Source of the DNA: an uncultured Verrucomicrobiae bacterium
GTDB lineage: Bacteria; Verrucomicrobiota; Verrucomicrobiia; Limisphaerales; UBA11358
Assembly (NCBI GenBank): GCA_963755455.1
Contig: CAVWJH010000001.1
Coordinates: forward strand, 146,864-210,863
Reading direction: 5' to 3'
DNA length: 64,000 bases
The position numbers and the translations under genes were made by a program. Below are positions 2,937-52,920 of the stretch, in pieces (the first letter of the stretch is position 1; each line of letters begins with the position of its first letter). The notes beneath the pieces are model-generated. The model worked only from the letters and a program-made list of their open reading frames with translations, made no database searches and was not told the DNA's origin.

Positions 2937-3269
2937 ATGATTCGCAAAGAACTCGTCGCCGCCTCGGCTGAACCGTTGATTTTGTCGCTGCTCGCAAAGG
3001 GCGAGAGTTACGGTTACGCCATCATCCAGGAAGTCAAGGCGCGCTCGGACGGCAAATTGAACTGGACGGACGGGATGCTTTACCCAGTGCTGCACCGGAT
3101 GGAACATCGGGGCTTGATCAAATCACGCTGGGCGGAAAGCGAAACCGGGCGGAAGCGGAAATATTACTCGCTCAAAAAAGACGGCAAAACGGCGATGGCC
3201 AAACACCACGAACAATGGTCGCTGGTTCATTCCGTTTTGGCCGGATTGAAAAAGGAACAATATGTTTGA
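2937..3269 (+). CDS. PadR family transcriptional regulator
   Basis: LILSLLAKGESYGYAIIQEVKARSDGKLNWTDGMLYPVLHRMEHRGLIKSRW...GRKRKYYSLKKDG is a canonical PadR winged helix. Its stop overlaps the next ATG (ATGTTTGA). Confidence 0.9.
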   Translation: MIRKELVAASAEPLILSLLAKGESYGYAIIQEVKARSDGKLNWTDGMLYPVLHRMEHRGLIKSRWAESETGRKRKYYSLKKDGKTAMAKHHEQWSLVHSVLAGLKKEQYV

Positions 3270-3913
3270 CCTTGAAAAATCCATCGCGGACTGGCGAAAC
3301 CAAATGCTCGCCGCCGGAATCAAAACGCCCGTGCCGCTGGAAGAGTTGGAAATTCATCTGCGCGAAGAAATCGAGCGGCAAATGCAATCGGGGTTGAGTG
3401 CGCAACGGGCGTGCGACGTCGCCACCAGAAAAAATTGGCGGCGCATCCGAACTAAAAAAGGAATTCAAGAAAACAGCCGATCCGTTGGATATGTGGCTCG
3501 TGAAACGAATGGGAATCGCCTGTGGCGCCTTCTCGCTGTTATTTTCAATGTGGATCCTTTTTTTCCTTTTCACCGATGAAATAAGTTTCATCACGAAAAT
3601 CTGCGGCCTGGCCGCTGTTGCCGCCGCCGGATTAAGCTGGAGATACAGCCATACGTTTCTTCCGGTAATCCGTCGTCGGTGGATCCGGGCGGCGATCGGA
3701 GGACTGTGTTGTCTTGGCGGTATTGTTTGGATTCGGCTTTTTTGCATCCATTTAGCCCCCGATTTGCTGGTGCGGGCGTTCGAAACCGCCACCATGCGCG
3801 GTTGGTTTTTAGTTTTGTTTCTGTGGGCGTGGAGCGTGGTCGCCATGTTTGGCGGAATTGCATTTGGATTGGAAAAGGCCGCGCGCGGGAAAGACACCGT
3901 GACGGTTTCATAA
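3262..3913 (+). pseudogene. PadR-associated membrane protein (N-terminal MFDLEKSIADWRNQMLAAGIK helix plus multi-TM C-terminus); one frameshift at an A6 run near 3425
   Basis: ORF 3262.. and ORF 3398..3913 join as ...SAQRACDVATRK|IGGASELKKEFKK..., parallel to the intact paralog (AFEMAALQIGQADVLKTEFVK). The C-terminus is hydrophobic. Confidence 0.6.
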
Positions 3914-3924
3914 AACGAAACAAT

Positions 3925-4644
3925 ATGTTTGACCTTGAAAAATCCATCGCGGACTGGCGAAACCAAATGCTCGCCGCCGGAATCAAAACACCCGTGCCGC
4001 TGGAAGAGTTGGAAATTCATTTGCGCGAAAATATCGAGCAGCAGATGCAATCAGGCGCAAATGAGCAACGAGCTTTTGAAATGGCTGCCTTGCAAATTGG
4101 TCAAGCCGATGTCTTGAAAACGGAATTTGTAAAAGCTGGCGGAGAAATTCCCGAAAGATTGAAGCAGTTCTTTTTTACCCTCGCAGGCACTCCAAACTAT
4201 CAACTCGCTACTAATATGAATACGACCAATTCAAACATCGAACCGCGCTGGGCAACTTATGCCAAGGCTGGCACCTTCCTTTTTCCTACGGTTTTTCTAT
4301 GGCTTTTAACCGTTGTCTTTGTTTTGCCAAAGGCGAATGAAATTTGTTCAGTGGCGGGCACAACTGTTTTTAATTTTGCGCAGCCTGTTCCTGCCATATT
4401 AAGAGTTTGGGCTACAACTGGCCAGACCTTGGTTTTTCTAACGAGCCACGGTTTTTTAATCGGCGGCGCAATCGTCTTGGCGTTCATTTTGTTAGAACGG
4501 TATTTCAGCCAGTGGCCACGCTATCGCCGGACGGCAATTGGCATTGTGGTTTTTCTTTTGAACGCGGTCGTTCTTCTTTCGCTGACCCTGATGATTATTT
4601 CGATTCTCGACGCAGCGCCAGCTTTGTATCATCATGCCCATTAA
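3925..4644 (+). CDS. PadR-associated membrane protein, tandem paralog of 3262..3913
   Basis: ATG at 3925. The first ~100 nt are nearly identical to 3262-3360. The C-terminal half holds several hydrophobic segments (FLFPTVFLWLLTVVFVL, FLIGGAIVLAFILL, IGIVVFLLNAVVLLSLTLMIISIL). Confidence 0.65.
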   Translation: MFDLEKSIADWRNQMLAAGIKTPVPLEELEIHLRENIEQQMQSGANEQRAFEMAALQIGQADVLKTEFVKAGGEIPERLKQFFFTLAGTPNYQLATNMNTTNSNIEPRWATYAKAGTFLFPTVFLWLLTVVFVLPKANEICSVAGTTVFNFAQPVPAILRVWATTGQTLVFLTSHGFLIGGAIVLAFILLERYFSQWPRYRRTAIGIVVFLLNAVVLLSLTLMIISILDAAPALYHHAH

Positions 4645-4664
4645 CTGATGAAGGTTGACCGCGC

Positions 4665-4714
4665 GCCTCCAGAATTTTTTTCAATTCCTCCGCCGCCCTG
4701 CCGCCGAAACCGGC
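4665..4714. repeat. Degenerate duplicate of the uvrC 3' end (distal copy)
   Basis: Hand alignment with 5208-5257 gives 44/50 identical. The minus-strand translation AGFGGRAAEELKKILEAR compares with PGFGGKAAEELKKFLEARI* of the real uvrC. Confidence 0.7.
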
Positions 4715-4748: not shown

Positions 4749-4946
4749 ATGAGTTTTGAGCAGCTCAAACGCGAAGTGACGGCATTGAATGACCGCGAGC
4801 GGGCGGAGTTGATTCGCTACACGCTTCAACTACGTCACGAGCACGACGCGGAATATCGCCGCGAAGTCACCGAAAGTTTGAACGACCGCGACAAATCGCA
4901 CTGGCTCACGCCGGAAGAATTAGAGCGCCGCCTCGACAACAATTAA
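4749..4946 (+). CDS. Putative antitoxin (small helical addiction-module component)
   Basis: 65-aa ORF MSFEQLKREVTALNDRERAELIRYTLQL...LTPEELERRLDNN, 4 nt upstream of a RelE/ParE-like ORF. Confidence 0.5.
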   Translation: MSFEQLKREVTALNDRERAELIRYTLQLRHEHDAEYRREVTESLNDRDKSHWLTPEELERRLDNN

Positions 4947-4950
4947 GGCC

Positions 4951-5201
4951 ATGCGGCCTTATGCCATTTACATCAACGAAGCAGCGTCGAGTTTCGTGCC
5001 GCGTTACGGTTCGCAACGCGAAAGAGTGATGAATTTTGTCCGTTCGCTTGCCGAAAGTCCAAACACGTCCGGGGATTTTCAGAAAAGGACGCCGCCGGCC
5101 GGATTGTCCAGGTAAAAATCATTGGCCGTTATGCGGTGACGTTTTGGGCCGACCACGCCATTTCAGAAATCAAAGTGACGCACATCAAGCCAGCGGATTA
5201 A
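4951..5201 (+). pseudogene. RelE/ParE-superfamily-like toxin, one frameshift near 5085-5100
   Basis: MRPYAIYINEAASSFVPRYGSQRERVMNFVRSLAESPNTSGDFQ then, after a frame change, KDAAGRIVQVKIIGRYAVTFWADHAISEIKVTHIKPAD*. Absent from the ORF track because both halves are under 60 aa. Its stop overlaps the convergent uvrC stop. Confidence 0.45.
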
Positions 5202-6813
5202 ATCCGTGCCTCCAAAAACTTTTTCAATTCCTCCGCCGCCTTGCCGCCGAAGCCGGGCACTTCGGAGATTTGTTCAACCGTCGCCAGTTGCAATCGCCGC
5301 ACCGAGCCGAATTTTTTCAGCAACGCCGATTTGCGCCGCTCGCCGATGCCGGGAAATTCGTCCAGCACGCTCTCGGAAATCCGCTTGAGCCGCAACTGCG
5401 CGTTGTAGGAATTCGCCACGCGATGCGATTCGTCGCGGATGCGTTGCAACAATTTCACCGCCGGATGATCCAGTCCCAGCCGCAACGGTTCGCTTTTGCC
5501 CGGCAGATAAATTTCCTCAAATTCCTTGGCCAGCCCGATGACGGGAATTTTTTCGAGGCCGAGTTTTTCCAATTCAGCAACCGCCATGCCGAGCTGACCT
5601 TTGCCGCCGTCAATCAAAATCAAATCCGGCAGATTGGAATTGGCCGATGGAAATTGGGAAGTCTTGACCGGAATTCGCTGGCGAACTTTGCGGCTCGTTT
5701 CATTCAACGAGCGTTTGTAATTCCTCCGGCACAGCGTGACCGTCGTCGTCATTCTTTGTTTTTTGGGTTGGCGCGACGCTTTCATTCAGCAGCCGTGAAT
5801 AACGCCGCCGCACGACTTCCGCCATGCTCGCAAAATCGTCCTGGCCTTCGACGGTTTTGATTTTGAAGCGACGATAATTCGCGCGGTCGGGCCGGCCATT
5901 TTTGAAACTCACCAGCGACGCGACGGCGAACGTGCCGCTGATGTTGGAAATGTCAAAGCCTTCAATGCGCTGCGGCGGCGCCGGCAAATTCAGAACTTTC
6001 GCGAGTTGCGCCAAATCATTTTGCGGCTGGCACATTGCCCGGCAACGAATACGGAATGCGCGCAAATTTTTCCGTTTTCTTCCAAGTGTCTTTCAAGTCG
6101 CGAACCAAGTCGCGCAGGCTCGCGGCTTTTTCAAAATCCTGCGCCGCCGCCGCCTTTTTCATTTCGCCTTCGAGCTGTTCCTGCATTTCGCGGCATTGGC
6201 CTTCAAGAAAACCGCACGCGGCCTTGACCTGTTCGAGATATTGCTCGCGCGAAACATTTCCGACGCACGGCGCGGTGCAGTATTTCAGATGCGCGTAAAG
6301 GCAATGTTTGTAATCGCTCTCGCCCGGCGTGAACACGCGGCAGCCGCGCAGATTGAATTGCCGTTGCGCGAGCGTGACGACGTTCCGCGCCGCCGTCGCG
6401 TTGACGAACGGCCCGAAATAGCGCGCGCCGTCGTCTTTTTTGAAACGCGCAAAAGAAAAATTCGGGATCGGGTCGTTCAGATTCACTTTCAACATCAAAA
6501 ACCGTTTGTCGTCGCGGAAGCTGATGTTGTAGCGCGGCTTGAATTCCTTGATGAGTTTGCTTTCGAGCAGGAGCGCCTCGGGTTCGCTGCGGACGACGTG
6601 GAAATCGAAATCGTGAATCGCCTCGACGAGCGCGTTGAATTTCAAATCCCAGCCCATGCGCCGCGACGATTGAAAATACTGGCTGACGCGTTTGCGCAGA
6701 TTGAGCGCCTTGCCGACGTAAATGACCGTGCCGAAGCGGTCGCGGTGCAGATACACGCCCGGCTTGTGCGGCAACGCGCTGAATTTTTTGCGGATGGCTT
6801 CGGTCACAGGCAT
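5198..6813 (-). pseudogene. uvrC: Excinuclease ABC subunit C, two frame disruptions (near 6040 and 5760)
   Basis: GVYLHRDRFGTVIYVGKALNLRKRVSQYF (GIY-YIG), UVR-domain-like [43 protein letters not shown] and a C-terminal (HhH)2 GIGERRKSALLKKFGS...ISEVPGFGGKAAEEL. Confidence 0.9.
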
Positions 6814-7528: not shown

Positions 7529-7747
7529 TCATGCCGCAACTGGCGAAAGTAATGCCAATTCAGAATTTTCCAAAACGCGCCGGGTCAGATCACGAGTCAC
7601 GGACGGAAAACATTCGAGGAATTCGTCGAGCGTGTAATTGTTTTCCAGATACTCGAAGAGCGTCTTCACCGGCACGCGCGTGCCTTTGAACACCGGCGTC
7701 CCGCCGAGAATGTCCGAGTCAACCGTGATGAGGTCGTTCGACTTCAT
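7529..7747 (-). CDS. DUF433 domain protein (antitoxin-like), no partner ORF seen
   Basis: ITVDSDILGGTPVFKGTRVPVKTLFEYLENNYTLDEFLECFPSVTRD matches the DUF433 pattern. Confidence 0.8.
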   Translation of the reverse strand: MKSNDLITVDSDILGGTPVFKGTRVPVKTLFEYLENNYTLDEFLECFPSVTRDLTRRVLENSELALLSPVAA

Positions 7748-7749
7748 GC

Positions 7750-8330
7750 GAGGAATTTAACACATCTTGCCGCTGGCAGTAAATCTTCGATTCTTTGAAC
7801 CTGAAGGCTTGAACGCGCGCGGTTTGCTTGGAAATTTTTTTGGCCGGGCGCGCCGGCAAATTTGTGAAATCGCTGGCCGATACATGAAAACGATTTAGCC
7901 ACAGATGAAACACGGATTGAACACGGATTTTTGAAATCATTTTGCGATGGACGTTTGGGGCGATTGGCGGTTGAATTTTTTGTCGCGCGAAGGACGCGAA
8001 GGCGGCGAAGTCCGTAGGAGCGGAATCATCAGTGAAAGAATTAACGCAAAGACGCCAAGACGCAATGAGCGCAAAGCAAAAATTCCTTGCGACTTCGCGC
8101 CTTTGCGTCTTTGCGTTGAAAATTTCCCCGCCGAATATGCCGCCCCGACGGGGCTGAAATTTTATTTTGGTTTTGGTTCTACAAATATGCCGCGCCGACG
8201 GCGCTGGGGACGAACGCCGTGCCAAAATCATTTTGCGTTGGACGTTTGGGGGGAGCGCGCGCGTCTCGCGTGCGGATGCGGGCGTCGCGCCCGGAACATT
8301 GTTGGACAAATTAGTTTTGGGAACGGGTTC
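7750..8330. repeat. REP-rich intergenic region with at least four repeat families
   Basis: TTAGCCACAGATGAAACACGGATT (recurs at 23446). AATCATTTTGCG-TGGACGTTTGGGG at 7934 and 8224. Hairpin AACGCAAAGACGC.../...GCGTCTTTGCGTT at 8041-8117. AATATGCCGC-CCGACGG-GCTG at 8134 and 8184. GGGAGCGCGCGCGTCTCGCGTG (reverse copy near 52805). Confidence 0.55.
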
Positions 8331-8624
8331 ATGCTGCGTCAAGGCTGGGCGACGTTGGATTTCAAAGACGTGGAGGAACTGGCGCAATTGAAGAAGCTGC
8401 ATGAGACTTTGCAGAAGGAAATCGCGGCAATCACAGAATCGTTGAAGGAATTGCGCGCAAGTCCAGATTATGAACTTTGCCAGTTGGCGGAGCAGAAGCC
8501 GGGCATTTTAGACGAGCTTGCGGCGGAACGGACGAAGCAGCTTGAAGTTGAAAATGCGGAGTTGGAATTGCAGGCGGAACGGCTGGCGAAGGAGATCAAG
8601 CAATTGGACGGCAAGGTGGGTTAA
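8331..8624 (+). CDS. Hypothetical coiled-coil protein
   Basis: ATG at 8331. The 97-aa product (LKKLHETLQKEIAAITESLKELRA...LEVENAELELQAERLAKEIKQLDGK) is helical and charged. The part of the ORF upstream of the ATG is REP translation. Confidence 0.35.
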   Translation: MLRQGWATLDFKDVEELAQLKKLHETLQKEIAAITESLKELRASPDYELCQLAEQKPGILDELAAERTKQLEVENAELELQAERLAKEIKQLDGKVG

Positions 8625-8679
8625 TAATCGTTCGGGAATTCCCCAATCGCCAGCCAGGCACCGGAATGGCTGATTTTGA

Positions 8680-9000
8680 ACCCGGAACGTCAAAAATGGG
8701 CGGCAACAGCGTAAAATTTTGCGGAGGAACGGCTTGATTGCCGTTGGCCAGCCTAAAAACGGCGGTGCAATGCCCAAAAACACCGGGGGAAAGCGAAAAA
8801 TGGCCGGGGGAAATGGATAATTGCGCGGGGGAACACCAATTGTCCGGAGGGAAAGCGATAATTGGGCGGTGGAAATGGGAAATTGCCCGGGGGAAAGCGT
8901 CCGATGCGCGGGGGAACCGGATAATTGTGCGGGGAACGTCCCAAATCTGCGGGGGAAAAGGCGCGGTGGCGGGGGACAACCGGAAATCATCACGTCCAGC
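8680..9000. repeat. Degenerate tandem array, about 15-17 units of 20-22 bp (consensus roughly CGGGGGAAANNGNNAATTGNG)
   Basis: Units read by eye, e.g. cgggggaaagcgaaaaatggc / cgggggaaatggataattgcg / cgggggaacaccaattgtc / cggagggaaagcgataattggg / cggtggaaatgggaaattgcc / cgggggaaagcgtccgatgcg / cgggggaaccggataattgtg. Confidence 0.6.
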
Positions 9001-9053
9001 CACCGGAATGAAGCGGCATCCGCACGGGACATTCCGCTTTTACTTGAGAAAAT

Positions 9054-9125
9054 AATTCTGCTGCTTCTCGCTGACGGGCATTCCAAGTTTTTCCATCACG
9101 GCCAGCATATCTTCCAAGATTTTGC
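9054..9125. repeat. Degenerate duplicate of the udg 3' end (distal copy)
   Basis: Hand alignment with 9856-9927 gives 65/72 identical. The minus-strand frame gives [27 protein letters not shown], versus [28 protein letters not shown] in the real gene. Confidence 0.75.
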
Positions 9126-9197
9126 ACGAAGGCAAAAATAAAATCCGGCGCTGGAAATTCCATTCGCCAATCCCGCAAAAACGATTACATTGTTTCC

Positions 9198-9428
9198 ATG
9201 AGCTATCTCACGCTGGAAGTGGAGATTGACCACGGAAAAGTGGCCGCGAAAGAGCCGTCGAAACTGCCGGAAAAGGCCAGCGGCCTGCTCACAATTTTCC
9301 AGCCGGAAACTGCGGAGGCCGCCAGGTTCACGCCGCTCCAGGCGCTGGACGCCCTGCAAAAACATCTGCGCCTCGACGCCGCGCACGCCGCAGACTGGAT
9401 GGCGACCGTGCGCGAAGCGAGACGTTAG
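9198..9428 (+). CDS. Putative antitoxin paired with the downstream PIN toxin
   Basis: 76-aa ORF ending 20 nt upstream of a PIN-domain ORF. No family recognised. Confidence 0.5.
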   Translation: MSYLTLEVEIDHGKVAAKEPSKLPEKASGLLTIFQPETAEAARFTPLQALDALQKHLRLDAAHAADWMATVREARR

Positions 9429-9448
9429 CCGCGCGAAATGTTCGGAGC

Positions 9449-9820
9449 ATGATTCATTTCGACACTAATTGTCTGATTCAAACCGCCATCGCCGGATCGT
9501 TCGCGCATGAACGATTTCGCGCGTGGGCGTCTGCGCGGGAAAATTTCAACGTCAGTAGCGTCGCATGGGCGGAATTTTTGTGTGGGCCGCTGGATGCCAC
9601 CGCCGAATCCATCGCGCGGCAGATTTTTCCAAATCCCGAACCGCTGCTTCCGGCTGACGCCACGCTCGCGGCAAAATTATTCAACCAGACCGGACGCCGT
9701 TCCCGAAGTCTGGCGGATTGCATGATCGCGGCGGTGGCAATTCGTTGCGGCGCAAAACTGGCGACAATCAACGCGGCGGATTTTCAGCCGTTCGCCCAGC
9801 ATGGTTTGAATTTGGCTTGA
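9449..9820 (+). CDS. vapC: PIN domain toxin (VapC-like)
   Basis: [10 protein letters not shown]...[10 protein letters not shown]...[26 protein letters not shown] has the PIN acidic-residue pattern and the typical C-terminal motif. Confidence 0.8.
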
Positions 9821-9838
9821 GTCGCGGACGGTTTATTT

Positions 9839-10760
9839 TCACGCCTTCAAAAAGAAATTCCGCTGCTTCTCGCTGATGGGCATTTCGAGTTTTTCCATCA
9901 CGGCCAGCATGTCTTCCCAGACTTTGCGCTTCTCGCTCATCGCCTGGTTGCGCAGCAGATACGCCGGATGATACGTCGGCATGAGCGGCGTGCCGCGATA
10001 CGTCTGCCAGTTGCCGCGCAGCTTCGTGATGCCGACGGTCTTGCCAAGCAAACCTTCCACCGCCGTCGCGCCGAGCGCGACGAGAACTTTCGGGCCGGAT
10101 CAAATCAATCTGCTCGTGCAGATACGGAATGCACGTCGCCATTTCGTCGGGCGTCGGCTTGCGGTTGCCGGCGGACTGGCCGGGCGTGTCGGGCCGGCAT
10201 TTCAAAATGTTGGCGATGTAAACATCCGCGCGCGAAAGTCCGGTGGCCTGGATGATTTTCGTGAGCAATTGTCCGGCGCGGCCGACGAACGGTTCGCCCT
10301 GCTCGTCTTCATCCGCGCCCGGCGCTTCGCCGACGAACATCAGTTGCGCGTCAATGCTGCCGACGCCGAACACGACGTTCTTGCGCGACGACGCGAGGTG
10401 CGGGCATTTCACGCAGGACAAGGCGCGCTTTCGCAATTCGGCGAAGGCGGCGGCTTTTTCGGGCGAAGAACTGATGATTTGAGATTTGAGATTTTGAATT
10501 TCAGATGTTGGCGCGGTGGACGGAGGCGTGGCGGCGATTTTTTTTGCGGGCATGGAAATTGTGGTTTGAGTTTTAGAAGCGGGTGCGGCGGACGTTTTCT
10601 CAATTTCAGGTTTGAAATTTGAAATTTGAAATTTCGGCGCCGCCTGCGCAAGCGCGCGGAGCGTTTCTTTCGAGACGGCGACATTTCGCACGCCGCGCGA
10701 TTTCAATTCTTCGAGATGATGGATTGTCGCGTCGAGCAGTTCGTTGTAAGCAACGGCCAT
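9839..10760 (-). pseudogene. udg: Family 4 uracil-DNA glycosylase with a ~110-aa N-terminal extension; one frameshift near 10085
   Basis: [51 protein letters not shown]...ANILKCRP...IDLIRP then a frame change to ...[37 protein letters not shown]. Confidence 0.85.
10475..10636. repeat. Two heptamer-periodic arrays inside the udg N-terminal extension (10475-10506 and 10603-10636)
   Basis: gatttgagatttgagattttgaatttcag and aatttcaggtttgaaatttgaaatttgaaatttcg, translated in frame as [11 protein letters not shown] and [13 protein letters not shown]. Confidence 0.75.
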
Positions 10761-10908: not shown

Positions 10909-11850
10909 TTACGGCGCGGCGGATGCCGGAATGGGAATTTCAGGACGGATGGAAGTTTTTTCCGCCGTGGGAAAATCTTTAGGCACGGGATAGGTGACGG
11001 GGCGGTTGGCGAGCCATTGCAACGCGCGGATGATCATCGTCTGGACGCCGGCGCAGCGCAGACTTTCGGGCTGCACGTCGCCTGCCCAGACGTGGCCGAA
11101 CGTGGCGATGTAGGCGCGGCCATTGCCGTATTTCACCGTCCACTCAACCGGCCAGTTCAAGCCGAATTGCGGATCGCGGGCGTAGGACAACACCTGAATG
11201 TTGGTCGCCGGGCCGCGCGCGTAGTAATAAACTTCCAGATGCGGCGTGAGCCACTCCTTCGGCACGCCGTCGTGGATCGGATGGTCGCCGAGCAGATGCA
11301 CCAGCACGTTGCCGTTCGGCGCGTGGCCGGTTCCCATGCCCTCGCCGGGCGGATGGAAGACGAGTTTTTCGTCGTCGCTGATGGAAATGGCCGTGCCGTA
11401 GGATTTCGGACGCCAGCCGAGGCCGATGATTTCATTGTATTCCGGCCAGTTGGCAAAAGCATTTTGCGCGGAGTGGTAAATATAAACGCCGCCGCCGTCG
11501 CGCACATAATTTGCGAAGTCCTCCTGCACCGGCTTCGGCCACGACGGGCCGCTGTGGTTGATGTCGTTGCAGGTCTGGATCACCACGTCGTAATCCTTGA
11601 ATTTCGGACGCCACTGATCCCAGCCGTTTGTGGACCTGGGCGGCGGGGTGGTGGAAACCGACACGTCGAAAAGTCCCGTCGGCTCGAGAATTCCCCGCAG
11701 CAGCGCGGTGTTATATTTCCAGGCGTGGTTGCTGTAGCCGTCCACGATGAGGACTTTGATTTTGCCGGAGGGCGCGGGCGCGTCGCCGGCGGCAATGGTG
11801 AACAGGGATGCCGCGCCGAGAAGGAGGGTGATGAGACGGATTTTTTTCAT
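10909..11850 (-). CDS. ThuA (trehalose utilisation) domain protein with signal peptide
   Basis: MKKIRLITLLLGAASLFTIAAG then KVLIVDGYSNH...YDVVIQTCNDI...VRDGGGVYIYHSAQNAF. Start taken at ATG 11850. Confidence 0.8.
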   Translation of the reverse strand: MKKIRLITLLLGAASLFTIAAGDAPAPSGKIKVLIVDGYSNHAWKYNTALLRGILEPTGLFDVSVSTTPPPRSTNGWDQWRPKFKDYDVVIQTCNDINHSGPSWPKPVQEDFANYVRDGGGVYIYHSAQNAFANWPEYNEIIGLGWRPKSYGTAISISDDEKLVFHPPGEGMGTGHAPNGNVLVHLLGDHPIHDGVPKEWLTPHLEVYYYARGPATNIQVLSYARDPQFGLNWPVEWTVKYGNGRAYIATFGHVWAGDVQPESLRCAGVQTMIIRALQWLANRPVTYPVPKDFPTAEKTSIRPEIPIPASAAP

Positions 11851-12024
11851 ACTGGTTTCAATGGTCAAACCGGAATTGCAAACGAATGTGGCTGTGTCCG
11901 GCCAATTAAACAAATTTTTGCGGGCGGCGCAACGGGAGAAGACAGCATTTTCAGTCGCCGGTTTCAACAAGCCGCCTTCTGGATATCATGGCCAGATTTT
12001 TTAACGCCTTCCGTTGCGCCCGTT

Positions 12025-21037: not shown

Positions 21038-21953
21038 ATGGGACTTTTTGCCAAATTCAAAGCCGGCCTCGCCAAGACGCACGCCAAGCTCACGCACGAA
21101 ATCAAGCGCATCGTCACGCGCTCGCCCAAGCTGACCGCCGAGTCGCTGGAAGAAATCGAGCACGCGCTCATCGCCGCCGATCTGGGCATGGCGATGACCA
21201 CGCAAATCATCGCCGCCGTCAAGAAAGCTTACGAAACGCAGGGCGCGCGGGACTGGACTATCTCGCCATCGCGCGCGCGGAAATTGAGAAAAGTCTTTCC
21301 GCGAACAAACCCGAAGTCTGCGCGAAATTCCCGGCGGCACCTGCGTCGTTTCCATCGTCGGCGTGAACGGCACGGGCAAGACCACGACGAGCGCGAAGCT
21401 CGCGCATTATTTTCAGGCGCAGAAAAAATCCGTGCTGCTCGCCGCGTGCGACACGTTTCGCGCGGCGGCGATTGAGCAGATCAAATTGTGGGGCACGCGC
21501 CTCAAAGTCGAAGTCATCGCCGGCAGCTTACGGCGCGGACGCGGCGTCCGTGGCGCACGACGCCGTCACCGCCGCGCAGGCGCGCAAGGCGGATTATCTG
21601 TTCATTGACACGGCGGGACGCTTGCACACGAAGCACAATTTGATGCAGGAATTGCAGAAGTTGCATCGCGTCATCGGCAAGCAACTCGCGGGCGCGCCGC
21701 ACGAAGTGCTGCTGGTGCTCGACGCGCAGCGACCGGCATGAACGCGCTGAACCAGGCGCGCGAATTTCACAAGGCCGTGCCGCTCACCGGCCTCATCGTG
21801 ACCAAGCTCGACGGCACGAGCAAAGGCGGCATGGTCGTGGCGATTCAGAAGGAACTCGGCCTGCCCATCAAATTCATCGGCCTCGGCGAGCAGCCGGACG
21901 ATTTGCAGCCCTTCGACGCGAAACAATTCGCGCAGGCGTTGTTTGAGGAATGA
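21038..21953 (+). pseudogene. ftsY: Signal recognition particle receptor FtsY, 4 frame disruptions
   Basis: MGLFAKFKAGLAKT...LEEIEHALIAADLGM / [19 protein letters not shown]...[15 protein letters not shown] / [16 protein letters not shown] / TGLIVTKLDGTSKGG...IKFIGLGE. Confidence 0.85.
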
Positions 21954-22027
21954 AATTATTCACTTAATACCAAGGCACAAAGATTGTAGAAACATGGGTT
22001 TTCCTTTATCACAAAAGAGAAATAATT

Positions 22028-23385
22028 ATGTTCAAACACCTAACCCGGCCTGGGCTGATCACATTGTTGGCGTCCGTGTCATTTTCCGCGACCAGTTTTG
22101 GGGCGAATCCCTTCATCACCAGCATTTACACCGCCGATCCGTCCGCTCATGTGTGGGCGGATGGCCGGCTGTATGTCTATCCCTCGCGCGACATGGATCC
22201 GCCACGCGGCTGCGACCTGATGGACCGGTATCATGTGTTCTCAACGGACAACATGGTGGATTGGCGGGACGAAGGGGAAATTCTACGGGCGAGCCAGGTG
22301 CTCGTGGGGCAGGCCGGAAGGCGGTTTCATGTGGGCGCCGGATTGCGCGTATCGCGACGGAACATATTATTATTATTTCCCGCATCCGAGCGACACGAAA
22401 TGGAACGACTCCTGGAAAATTGGCGTGGCGACGAGCGAAAAGCCGGCGAGCGATTTCAAAGCCGGCGGTTACATCGAAGGCCTTGGCGGTTTCGCGATGA
22501 TTGATCCGGCGGTGTTCATGGATGACGACGGCCACGCTTATATTTATTTCGGCGGCGGCGGCCATTGCGCGGGCGTGAAATTGAAACCGGACATGACGGA
22601 AATTGGACGGAACGGTCCAGCCGATGACCGGCCTGGAGGATTTTCACGAAGCCACCTGGGTTTTCAAACGCAACGGCATTTATTACCTGACTTACGCGGA
22701 CAATCATCCTCGACACAACGAGATGCGCTATGCCACCAGCACCAACGCGCTCGGTCCGTGGACCTACAAGGGAGTCTATCTGGAAGGGACCGACTGCGAC
22801 ACCACGCACGGCTCCGTGGTGGAATACAAAGGTCAATGGTATCAGTTCTATCACAACTGCAGCATTTCCAGGCAGGGCAATCTGCGTTCGATATGCGTGG
22901 ATAAAATAAATTTCAATGATGACGGGACAATACAGATGATCGTGCAAACCAAGACCGGCGTGCCGTCCGTCGGCCCGGCTCCGGTGCCCAATCCGAACAC
23001 GGTCAAATATGTGGCCGGGAATGCCAGCGTCACCAATGGTGCGACCATCGAAAGCGACAGCGCGGCCTCCAGCGGCAAGAGCGTGCAGAATCTCAATTTC
23101 ACCAATTCCTGTTTGCAGTTTGACAATGTGGACGGCGGCGAAAATGGCGGCCGGGCCACGATTGACATCTATTACGCCACCGCCGAAAAGTCCGAGCTCA
23201 GGTTGAGCGTGAACGACGCCGATTATTCGTTCATCAACACGCTTTCCACCGGCGGCTGGACCAATTACACCGGCCATTCGTATCTGACCGTTCCATTGAA
23301 CTCCGGCAAAGCCAACACCATCAAGCTCACCGGCGGCCACGGCGGGGTCAACGTGGATTACATCACCGTCAGCCCGCTGCCGTGA
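22028..23385 (+). pseudogene. Secreted glycoside hydrolase family 43-like enzyme with C-terminal CBM6/35-like domain, 2 frame disruptions
   Basis: Signal peptide, then NPFITSIYTADPSAHVWADGRLYVYPSRD, WAPDCAYRDGTYYYYF, IDPAVFMDDDGHAYIYFGG, HEATWVFKRNGIYYLTYA and HGSVVEYKGQWYQFYH. The C-terminus reads ...GGWTNYTGHSYLTVPLNSGKANTIKLTG...VDYITV. Confidence 0.8.
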
Positions 23386-23401
23386 CGCGCTGCCGGCCGG
23401 C

Positions 23402-23445
23402 GCGAAGCAATTTGCGCAGGCGTTGTTTGAGGAATAAAAATTATT
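23402..23445. repeat. Duplicate of the ftsY 3' end (distal copy)
   Basis: gcgaagcaatttgcgcaggcgttgtttgaggaataaaaattatt versus 21918-21960 gcgaaacaattcgcgcaggcgttgtttgaggaatgaaattatt. It still reads AKQFAQALFEE*. The two coding differences seen are synonymous, and the stop codon differs (TGA vs TAA). Confidence 0.7.
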
Positions 23446-23511
23446 TTAGCCACAGATGAAACACAGATTTTGGAAGTTGTAACGTCGTGAATCAATTGCA
23501 CTAAAAGTAAA

Positions 23512-52214: not shown

Positions 52215-52920
52215 ACCGCCAAGACGCAAAGGCACAAAGATGAAGACAATATTTTGTAGGAGCCGAGGTTACGAGGCTCAAATTAAAAAGTTGGAGACTC
52301 CTTGCGTGGTCTTCTGCATAGCGACGGACTTTGTAAGGAAAACGGTCAAAAACCGCCATTTTGGGATGAATTGCCTCAAAACAACGGGATTATCCAGATG
52401 ACAAACATATTAAAACGCCAATTTCGCTTGGCCGGATGGTCGGGCAACTTGGCCGGATGGTCGGGCAACTTGGCCGGATGGTTGGGCAACTTGGCCGGAT
52501 GGTTGGGCAACTTGGCCGGATGGTCGGACGACTTGGCCGGATGGTCGGGCGACTTGGCCGGACGGTCGGACGACTTGGCCGGACGGTCGGGCGACTTGGC
52601 CGGACGGTCGGACGACTTGGCCGGATGGTCGGGAAACTTACCCGAACGGTCGGGAGATTTAGCTGGAGGGTCGAGCAATATGCGGCTGCGGTTCGATGCG
52701 CCCTGCGCCGAACACTTCGTGCGGACAACTCGTTTGCGGAAGGCGGACGAATTGCTCCGGTCATGCGCGCCAGAAAGTCAACGACGTGGCGTCGTTGACG
52801 GCACGCGAGGCGCGTGCGCTCCCAAAAATTTTAAGGTTTCAATTTTGAAAAATGGCATACAGAGGGTAGTCTATACCAGTAATAATGCCGACTCTTGGCG
52901 CTCTTTGCGTCTTGGCGGTT
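52215..52920. repeat. Intergenic repeat block bounded by a perfect 18-bp inverted repeat (AACCGCCAAGACGCAAAG / CTTTGCGTCTTGGCGGTT)
   Basis: Left copy at 52215-52232 and right copy at 52903-52920. The interior holds a GTAGGAG-type REP (~52255), a 21-bp minisatellite and a CACGCGAGGCGCGTGCGCTCCC REP (~52805). Confidence 0.6.
52428..52679. repeat. Tandem minisatellite, 12 x 21 bp (TTGGCCGGATGGTCGGGCAAC and variants)
   Basis: Twelve head-to-tail units counted by hand. The first ten are near-identical, with patterned variants (GGCAAC, TTGGGCAAC, GGACGAC/GGGCGAC alternation). The last two are degenerate. Confidence 0.9.

Follow-up and report, generated by a model that had tools for sequence, protein, structure and literature searches.

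The window, the whole stretch of 64,000 nt analysed here, contains a udg gene on its minus strand and, directly beyond the 3' end of this gene, a compact VapBC-like cassette of about 720 bp (Table 1). The cassette is made up of its own upstream block, a partner gene of 76 codons and a PIN toxin gene. On its far side lies a second copy of the udg 3' end, truncated at the 5' side; there is no further content within the bracket formed by gene end, cassette and truncated gene end. The udg product is 85-98% identical in amino acid sequence to those of Limisphaerales udg genes. The gene is split into two frames by a +1 nt frameshift at about 10091 (10088-10095), as three-frame translation shows. It is a frameshift relative to all relatives, and amounts to one extra base compared with related loci L095 and L092. 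This frameshift is missing from the preliminary description of the window. Isolated 1-nt frameshifts are found in the window in both udg and uvrC.

Table 1. Features of the bracketed cassette at udg (positions in the window)
Feature	Position	Strand	Remarks
Distal repeat copy	9043..9125	-	5'-truncated relic of the udg 3' end; 27 codons and TAA at 9040-9042
Cassette left arm	9126..9197	+	Upstream block, retained together with the cassette wherever it occurs (window, L092, L086 and L082 aligned)
76-aa partner, presumed antitoxin	9198..9428	+	PIN gene 20 nt downstream
PIN-domain (VapC-like) toxin gene, 123 aa	9449..9820	+	Pfam PIN (PF01850) 1.4e-10, 42.3 bits against a cut-off of 23.6
Spacer between convergent PIN and udg stop codons	9821..9838	.	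18 nt; kept in all cassette-bearing relatives
udg, family-4 uracil-DNA glycosylase with low-complexity N-terminal extension	9839..10760	-	Pfam UDG on both pieces
Proximal repeat copy	9845..9927	-	Working last 27-28 codons of udg, stop 9839-9841

The PIN toxin has 931 homologues in metagenomes and matches VapC15 and VapC11 in the PDB (E 1e-4 to 5e-4). Residues D5, E42, D90 and D111 are present by eye; the alignment to VapC15 covers residue 28 onward only. Its score of 31 bits lies below the cut-offs of the curated VapC equivalog models (80 and 73.6 bits; NCBIfam NF047959 / TIGR00028), and it is a PIN toxin-like protein outside these models. In every related locus the partner gene precedes the PIN gene by 20-30 nt; it has no Pfam or NCBIfam match. 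By sequence the pair is a candidate type II toxin-antitoxin (TA) system of the VapBC (PIN) class, with a VapC-like toxin and a presumed antitoxin. The left arm is presumed to be a promoter/operator. By eye it contains TTCGCC (9163-9168), a 17-nt spacing and TACATT (9186-9191), and the ATG follows 6 nt on; a scan of the arm with the sigma-70 consensus gave no match. An Rfam and terminator scan of the locus found nothing, and a repeat search found no terminal inverted repeats at the cassette ends. Among the ORFs in or beside the window cassette there is no integrase or transposase, nor is there one among the neighbour genes of related loci.

A repeat search and MAFFT alignment give a direct repeat of 83 nt with 72/83 positions identical and 802 nt from start to start. 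The overall identity is 87%, and the longest exact identity is 23 nt. The preliminary description had reported 65 matches in 72 nt; this count is exact, with 7 mismatches between 9054-9125 and 9856-9927. It was also correct in the two C-terminal translations, both on the minus strand and each ending at the stop listed in Table 1, and in placing nothing but the antitoxin/PIN pair between the copies, the antitoxin role being presumed. Neither of the objections it had anticipated holds. The repeat is not a common dispersed one: the 23-mer core occurs in the 64 kb only at these two sites, and 0 chance matches are expected. Nor is the arrangement mis-assembled. It is scarcely conceivable that the layout is an assembly artefact, or a chimeric contig fusing two strains at the udg end. 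The frameshifts in udg and uvrC do suggest an error-prone assembly, but 87% identity is too low to confuse an assembler. An independent Logan contig (L081), 100% identical to window positions 8246-9865, spans the distal copy and both its junctions, and the same architecture is present in at least three other metagenomes (L092, L094, L097/L098).

A single clade holds three states of the site: empty, cassette without relic, and cassette with relic. The preliminary description had called for a search for empty sites, and uninterrupted sites do exist in relatives. In L006 and L011, udg is followed by about 60 nt and then DedA; in L001 and L002, it is followed by about 90 nt and then a 514-aa ORF. 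Homology of the flank downstream of the relic to that downstream of udg at the empty sites was considered and set aside, the two being too diverged or rearranged to align. The window, L092, L094 and L097, as well as loci at other target genes, have an intact gene and, past the insert, a copy of its 3' end that is truncated at the 5' side. In the four relic-bearing lineages, the relic begins within a few nt of a common boundary (GCAAAGTCTGG), and the stop is kept in all. The relic is missing from five cassette-bearing lineages. These relic-free relatives retain 'GCAAA' at the cassette edge, a motif common to the cassette edge and the udg boundary; it could be a 5-nt microhomology junction rather than the stump of a relic.

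The two copies differ in their relation to other udg genes, a comparison which the preliminary description had proposed. The proximal copy resembles the udg ends of relatives and has no unique states; each of its states at the sites where the copies differ also occurs in relatives. In the distal copy, three non-synonymous changes are unique; they fall at sites that do not otherwise vary, one of them the invariant Trp. L092 has a relic at the same place. Because this relic and that of the window have derived changes in common (W to L, V to I/T, I to V), the event is old and inherited, predating the split of the window and L092 lineages. The two relics show 9/86 differences, and dS is 0.09-0.14 for the adjacent antitoxin and udg. 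The cassette and its flanks are equally diverged between the window and L092; cassette, gene and relic have been passed on as a unit since the event. This equal identity rules out a recent horizontal arrival of the window cassette, and mobility of the window copy is therefore not demonstrated.

The distal copy is a real and old relic, best regarded as non-functional, and its drift is close to neutral in rate. The preliminary description held that it had been displaced by the insertion, and took its preserved frame and stop as a sign that it had once been the working end. The first part stands insofar as a 5'-truncated copy of the udg 3' end does lie beyond the inserted cassette. The second part does not: divergence of the relic is close to the local synonymous rate, and preservation of frame and stop is not evidence on its own. 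Divergence is so low that no indel is expected in 83 nt, so a preserved frame is uninformative. Resident and incoming copies are not separable, because after a single crossover both would be chimeras of donor and recipient. Purifying selection on the relic ORF, at first suggested by a dN/dS of about 0.1 for the relics of the window and L092, was rejected: the polarised changes came to about 6 non-synonymous and 6 synonymous, L094 and L097 lack a start codon, and divergence matches the local dS. The window relic keeps the state common in the clade ('NYFL'), from which the working copy of the window differs. In L097, the proximal copy is of an 'RRFF' type which matches its own gene body, and the relic is of the 'NYFL' type. 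In L094, derived changes in the relic are 4 synonymous to 1 non-synonymous, and this relic looks like a recently working end. The two allele types of L097 and the synonymous bias of L094 mean that the copies need not have begun identical.

Similar brackets are widespread in this cassette family. A direct repeat across the cassette was found in 22 of 61 non-redundant metagenomic loci (36%), compared with 5/181 mismatched-locus controls and, for inverted repeats, 3/61. The repeats are 26-169 nt long and 77-100% identical. They derive from the target and are different at each locus; targets include ABC-F, histidine kinase, PGM/PMM, PfkB and MidA-like genes and the 5' end of an exonuclease gene, and one cassette family uses more than ten unrelated targets. 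The repeat boundary mostly lies 0-12 nt past the stop codon of the adjacent gene. A family-wide bracket of target-gene ends around a TA cassette is new here. Successive displaced ends form arrays at two loci, L165 and L104; the window has one relic only. L165 has the order X, PIN TA, X, RelE-like TA, X, where X is the repeat, and thus has three repeat copies and two different TA cassettes. L104 also has three repeat copies, and its target is a promoter/5' end. Pooled differences between relic and gene copies are distributed 26:27:52 over the three codon positions, which is significant against a uniform spectrum; 46 codons differ synonymously and 47 non-synonymously. These counts were discarded as a discriminator between models, since 26:27:52 is predicted both if the copies were identical at birth and if they descend from two working alleles. 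In L110 and L114 the copies differ almost only at third positions. The bracket of L114, with copies 97% identical, is an example of a young one, as is that of L104.

One pair of loci bears on movement of the cassette itself. L138 and L139 are 93% identical over 5.2 kb, but between about 3500 and 4500 they differ at 3 positions in about 1 kb (0-2 mismatches per 100 nt). This tract holds the cassette, from the antitoxin ATG at 3746 to the PIN stop at 4372, with about 250 nt upstream and about 130 nt downstream. It shows homologous recombination exchanging the cassette between diverged genomes.

On balance, the cassette was probably placed 18 nt after the udg stop by a homology-driven insertion-duplication, which also made the relic. 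DNA carrying the cassette beside a short copy of the udg end would recombine once with the chromosomal udg end. The donor could be circular; an 'ends-in' or one-sided homologous fragment would be equivalent. On one side the gene would be rebuilt intact; on the other a 5'-truncated copy would be left, still terminated by its stop. The repeat would end at the stop codon because only duplications which span the gene end leave the gene working. TA addiction might then guard the cassette from loss via recombination between the repeat copies, and the relic might serve as a second homology arm for further spread. Because relatives of the pair are bracketed alike at many unrelated genes, the arrangement suggests that these pairs enter genomes with no enzyme of their own. 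A single crossover covers spread at a given gene; the first capture of a new target's end needs an illegitimate step. Two observations should be set beside this account. The plasmid and viral collections contain no copy of the cassette, and no circular or donor molecule was seen in them. The codon spectrum counts against a single crossover in that it gives just as good a fit to a duplication that began with identical copies, one of which then decayed neutrally.

That fit would also be expected of a true target-site duplication, in which a staggered double-strand break, or template switching during replication, takes up the cassette. A stretch of 26-170 nt separating the two nicks would be filled on both sides, the copies would be identical at birth, and selection would retain the events that span a gene boundary. 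Such an origin is possible, though rather unlikely. It needs no prior homology and accounts for the X-cassette-X layout at many unrelated targets, including the promoter/5' end in L104; the spectrum matches one neutral and one constrained copy, and retention of 'NYFL' by the window relic while the working copy differs is also in its favour. However, the length varies from 26 to 169 nt, with no transposase, Cas1 or terminal inverted repeat. Nearly always one boundary is 0-12 nt from a stop codon, a regularity not expected of random nick pairs, and arrays re-use one repeat. The mostly synonymous changes in L094 and the third-position differences in L110 and L114 look as if both copies had worked in different genomes. 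A transposon or insertion sequence can be rejected: there is no transposase ORF, there are no terminal inverted repeats, and the repeats (26-169 nt) are not of fixed length.

Insertion by an integrase classically leaves a duplicated gene 3' end behind. The copies could accordingly be attL and attR of a tyrosine or serine recombinase acting in trans, with the cassette as a cis-mobilisable remnant, and the constant relic boundary in four lineages is in keeping with this. It is nevertheless improbable: no integrase lies in or adjoining the bracket, which has only two small ORFs between the repeats; more than ten unrelated targets with differing repeat lengths are used instead of one specific site; and the window copies are 87% identical with no exact run above 23 nt. 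It is a little more improbable still that the distal copy is kept for a function, whether as a small peptide corresponding to the UDG C-terminal tail or as a regulatory element acting on the divergent TA promoter. Frame and stop are kept in four lineages, and TTG-initiated ORFs of 31-32 aa occur in the window and L092. Against this, neither L094 nor L097 offers a canonical in-frame start codon before the first internal Met (that of EDM), the window and L092 have lost the invariant Trp, and divergence equals the local dS. The relic is also absent in five cassette-bearing lineages and has no Pfam, Rfam or terminator signal.

Insertion-duplication of this kind resembles several known systems. In Campbell-type integration of circular DNA that carries a gene fragment, one crossover leaves two copies of the homologous fragment flanking the insert, and a fragment containing a 3' end yields one intact and one truncated gene copy. 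Single crossovers of circular plasmids in E. coli conjugation produced lacZ-end duplications of 109-950 bp (PMC3240628). That work, like suicide-vector genetics, uses laboratory constructs with long and perfect homology, whereas the repeats described here are natural, 26-169 nt long and 77-100% identical. Homology-facilitated illegitimate recombination usually deletes recipient DNA (PMC3240628); here the outcome is a duplication. In the 'C-terminal displacement' of Rhs and CDI genes (Jackson et al. 2009, PMC2935791) and in T6SS effector-immunity displacement (Kirchberger et al. 2017, PMC5361080), a new 3' end arrives with a linked selfish module and the old end becomes a downstream 5'-truncated 'tip', as may have happened at the udg locus. 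Displaced tips build arrays, as in the cassette family. For those systems, the proposals are homologous recombination by way of circular intermediates, or illegitimate recombination facilitated by homology. However, their tip consists of a variable toxin domain with an immunity gene, and diversity is the point; here ordinary genes such as udg, ABC-F and PGM supply a conserved end as the duplicated segment, a VapBC-like pair standing on its own is the cargo, and the working protein does not change.

The TA 'islets' of Photorhabdus are likewise minimal, TA-only insertions without mobility genes, set snugly between core genes (PMC13617665). They spread by homologous recombination at flanking core genes (PMC13617665), and L138 and L139 directly show exchange of this type. 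A term search of that study (PMC13617665) returned no mention of direct repeats and no gene-end duplication around TA cassettes, compared with 36% of loci here. Prophages, ICEs, IMEs and CIMEs are also flanked by direct repeats of the 3' end of their target, a tRNA or protein gene, and leave the gene intact; unlike in integrase-mediated 3'-end integration, there is no integrase here, the targets are many and unrelated, and repeat copies match imperfectly and vary in length. Integron arrays are similar in that small, promoter-poor cassettes, often TA pairs, are arrayed between repeated elements. They differ in that the repeat here is a relic of the neighbouring gene and not an attC hairpin, there is no IntI/attI, and every cassette has its own upstream block.

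The duplicated gene end might be more than a scar and might itself be the means of mobility of an enzyme-free selfish cassette; this is a doubtful reading. Flanked by the gene body with its working end and by the relic, the cassette would have homology to every cassette-free allele. RecA of the host might then suffice to copy it into the same gene of any related genome, whatever lies downstream. Every transfer would renew the stop-proximal part of the relic, and repeats would build integron-like arrays without an integrase. If the bracket does promote spread, site-specific mobility would here be reduced to a minimum and need only host recombination, and the accumulation of such cassettes immediately behind the stop codons of conserved genes would be explained. 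Small genes would then be gained generally by this route in soil Verrucomicrobia.

For the entry of TA pairs and other single-gene 'islets' without mobility genes into chromosomes, current accounts invoke recombination at flanking core genes. This cassette family leaves a measurable footprint, the duplicated end of a neighbouring gene, at about one third of its loci. Such a footprint places limits on the mechanism, allows events to be dated and can be looked for across whole genomes. It also matters for annotation; relics yield spurious small ORFs and apparently 'duplicated' gene ends. An extra ThuA gene (10909-11970) in the window was found to have no direct-repeat bracket, and the bracket is therefore not universal for insertions in the window. 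Three different cargos with a like bracket are present in the 64 kb.

The 3' end of udg is present twice in the window, as an 83-nt direct repeat (9043-9125 and 9845-9927) with 72 identities (87%) and a spacing of 802 nt. The preliminary description gave 65 identities over a narrower 72-nt span, and realignment returns exactly that number. An exact 23-nt core of the repeat occurs at two sites only in the 64-kb window, both of them in the repeat copies; the number expected by chance is zero. The proximal copy is the working end of the gene and the distal copy is a 5'-truncated relic. The interval was said to hold an antitoxin/PIN pair only, and a partner ORF and a PIN ORF are what is found there. 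The PIN ORF has weak matches to curated VapC models, under their cut-offs; VapC15 and VapC11 are its neighbours in the PDB. By its sequence, the cargo looks like an ordinary VapBC-like toxin-antitoxin (TA) pair in which the partner protein, the presumed antitoxin, has no known family. The cassette opens with a conserved upstream block that begins 40-70 nt ahead of the first ATG, and it ends 0-20 nt past the PIN stop. It contains no recombinase, transposase or terminal inverted repeats, and searches of the plasmid and viral collections returned no copy of it. Mis-assembly, raised earlier as a threat to the reading, is excluded: positions 8246-9865 are identical in an independent Logan contig, and copies at 87% are too unlike to mislead an assembler. 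The UDG C-terminus (9842-9870) resembles a C-terminal beta-clamp-binding motif, Qxx[LF]F; QQNYFL is retained in the relic.

Gene ends and cargo at the bracketed sites of the window
Feature	Position	Strand	Location	Basis or family match
udg 3' end, working copy	stop 9839-9841	minus		translation
udg 3' end, relic (distal copy)	stop 9040-9042	minus		translation
76-aa partner ORF	9198-9428		between udg-end copies	no family match
PIN-domain ORF, 123 aa	9449-9820		between udg-end copies	Pfam PIN, 42.3 bits
Small ORF	4749-4946		inside uvrC bracket	no family match
Small ORF	4951-5115		inside uvrC bracket	no family match
Frameshifted GH43 + CBM35 gene	22028-23385		inside ftsY bracket; stop 3 nt from distal copy	

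Searches with the udg protein match Limisphaerales (Verrucomicrobia subdivision 3) genomes at 85-91% identity, and the order udg, DedA-like (VTT domain) gene, uvrC is conserved. The search for empty sites that had been suggested yields cassette-free udg loci: DedA follows ~60 nt after udg in L006 and L011, and in L001 and L002 udg is followed by ~90 nt, an ORF of 514-539 aa and then DedA. There are no PIN or partner protein matches among 80 genome loci and no second udg end among the 40 genome loci listed. Metagenomes contain 931 homologues of the PIN protein. Those with at least 85% identity all adjoin udg and are convergent with it, with ~20 nt between the stop codons; of those with 83% or less, none adjoins udg. 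The cassette loci form one clade in a neighbour-joining tree of udg (no bootstrap), and the cassette-free L001 and L002 are nested within it. Beyond the window, a distal udg end is found in three further lineages (L092, L094 and L097/L098), and the cassette is present without it in five (L082, L086, L093, L095, L099). All udg relics start at the same boundary within a few bases (GCAAAGTCTGG, codons K-V-W) and keep frame and stop. At relic-free cassette loci only 'GCAAA(T/A)' is left at this edge, which is either a relic stump or 5-nt microhomology.

The udg-DedA spacer varies from 0.06 to 4.6 kb and collects TA remnants. A DUF433 gene and a truncated partner (first 14 codons) lie between the udg relic and the PIN cassette in L094 (3440-3700); the spot therefore took several cassettes. 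In the window, an orphan DUF433 gene (7529-7747) lies 12 nt from the DedA start. A ThuA-family gene (10909-11970) with no direct repeat around it lies between udg and MscS; it is missing in L092 and L099, and there udg lies directly beside MscS.

Synteny between L092 and the window extends over both flanks, with MscS and amylase upstream and DedA and uvrC downstream. The two relics share derived changes (Trp to Leu, Val to Ile/Thr, Ile to Val, GAC to GAT), so the udg-end duplication is older than the split between these loci. Identity is 89-96% in the cassette and 86-96% in uvrC and MscS, and the window's cassette copy has been passed on vertically. With 17 relatives used to polarise the changes, none of the states in the proximal copy is unique; three non-synonymous changes at invariant sites are found in the distal copy alone, whose remaining differences are polymorphic among relatives. 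The proximal copy is thus the one nearer to the udg ends of relatives, a comparison proposed beforehand. The window and L092 relics differ at 9/86 sites, and synonymous divergence is 0.09 in the adjacent antitoxin and 0.14 in the udg body. Relic divergence is close to local synonymous divergence and the relic thus drifts neutrally; its open frame does not speak for function. Retention of the relic for a function is unlikely. In the L094 and L097 relics, no canonical start codon lies in frame ahead of the first internal Met (the one in EDM).

Direct repeats flank the cassette at 22 of the 61 non-redundant loci with usable flanks. Controls give 3/61 for inverted repeats and 5/181 when the upstream flank is paired with another locus's downstream flank. 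These repeats are 26-169 nt long, 77-100% identical and different at each locus. They derive from the neighbouring gene: ABC-F ATPase, histidine kinase, PGM/PMM, PfkB kinase, MidA-like methyltransferase or a secreted repeat protein. In one case, an exonuclease gene, the repeat is the promoter and first codons. One boundary of the repeat lies 0-12 nt beyond the stop codon in almost all cases, with the cassette edge at the same point. L165 carries an array (1154-2872) of repeat, PIN pair, repeat, RelE-like pair, repeat; the repeat is the end of a helicase-like gene (…QPSRFLSEIPGDLLNQWNL…), of which there is no intact copy near the array. Three repeat copies are found in L104. L161 and L172 are tandem cassettes, in which the upstream block of the cassette itself is what is repeated.

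This geometry would be produced if DNA carrying the insert and a fragment with a gene's 3' end met the chromosome in a single crossover; the product would be an intact gene, the insert and a 5'-truncated gene end. Repeats would end at the stop codon because only such events keep the gene. The model accounts for this boundary, the constant boundary in the udg clade, mixed allele types and arrays, and leaves open how the cassette first joins a new gene's end. Duplications of the lacZ end of 109-950 bp with the same arrangement of gene, insert and truncated end are known from E. coli experiments (PMC3240628). The single-crossover geometry has also been put forward to explain Rhs C-terminal displacement (PMC2935791), and a related scheme to explain T6SS effector displacement (PMC5361080).

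The main competing model is a true target duplication arising from a staggered break or template switch. It easily explains new targets, and the pooled codon-position spectrum (26:27:52) fits both models equally. Target duplication explains neither the stop-codon boundary nor the copies in L094, L110 and L114, which differ almost only at synonymous sites. There are hints in the sequences that relic and working copy need not begin identical. The working udg end of L097 is of the 'RRFF' type, as in its gene body and L094, and its relic carries 'NYFL', the type of the other subclade. Judged against L097, the L094 relic has four synonymous and one non-synonymous derived changes of its own, the pattern expected of a recently working gene end (p ~0.016, five changes). 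An integrase acting in trans is unlikely, given the many targets, the imperfect repeats and the absence of an integrase.

This cassette family is indeed moved by homologous recombination. L138 and L139 are 93% identical over 5.2 kb, with only 0-2 mismatches per 100 nt from ~3500 to 4500 (3 in ~1 kb). This tract spans the cassette (antitoxin ATG 3746 to PIN stop 4372), which lies between alanine racemase and the next gene, as well as the last 200 nt of the former and the first 100 nt of the latter; it marks a recent recombinational transfer or sweep.

The footprint at the window's cassette is of the known insertion-duplication or C-terminal displacement kind. No account of such a footprint for TA cassettes at housekeeping genes was found in the literature. 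A recent study (PMC13617665) proposes that TA islets spread by recombination at flanking core genes; a term search of its text turned up neither direct repeats nor duplicated gene ends at TA cassettes. The repeat is real, and the preliminary description was broadly right but incomplete. More than in the single old relic, the interest lies in the family-wide, testable footprint to which it led.

Two further gene ends in the window bracket other cargo, and the process is therefore not restricted to the PIN cassette. The uvrC 3' end (5205-5256 and 4662-4713; 52 nt, 88% identical) has a working end …GFGGKAAEELKKFLEARI followed by the stop and a distal copy …GFGGRAAEELKKILEARG…; L092 carries this bracket too (1122-1166 and 1670-1714). 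The ftsY 3' end (21905-21955 and 23389-23439; 51 nt, 84% identical) reads …KQFAQALFEE and stop in both copies, and has non-TA cargo with the same footprint. Isolated 1-nt insertions split udg (one surplus base near 10091 compared with all relatives) and uvrC (~5707, ~6031), and ftsY (21038-21953) and the GH43 gene are broken into overlapping ORFs; these breaks are either assembly errors or several pseudogenes.

A 162-nt direct repeat (3249-3410 and 3912-4073; 90%), with copies ~500 nt apart, is made of the 5' end of the gene that follows a PadR regulator (MFDLEKSIADWRNQMLAAGIKTPVPLEELEIHLRE…) and is possibly a 5'-end version of the bracket process. A REP-like dispersed motif (…AGCCACAGATGAA/ACACAGATT…) follows the ftsY relic (23440-23470); it is also repeated around the cassette in L173 (3180-3440 and 4800-4860). 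About 10 degenerate 21-nt units form a tandem array (8740-8960, consensus CGGGGGAAAGCGATAATTGCG) ~80 nt beyond the udg relic; no Rfam family matches the array, no coding role is obvious, and it is absent at the equivalent place in L092. A second, unrelated 21-nt array is found at 52385-52718, best resolved at 52427-52654 (10.9 copies, 91% matches, consensus CTTGGCCGGATGGTCGGGCAA).
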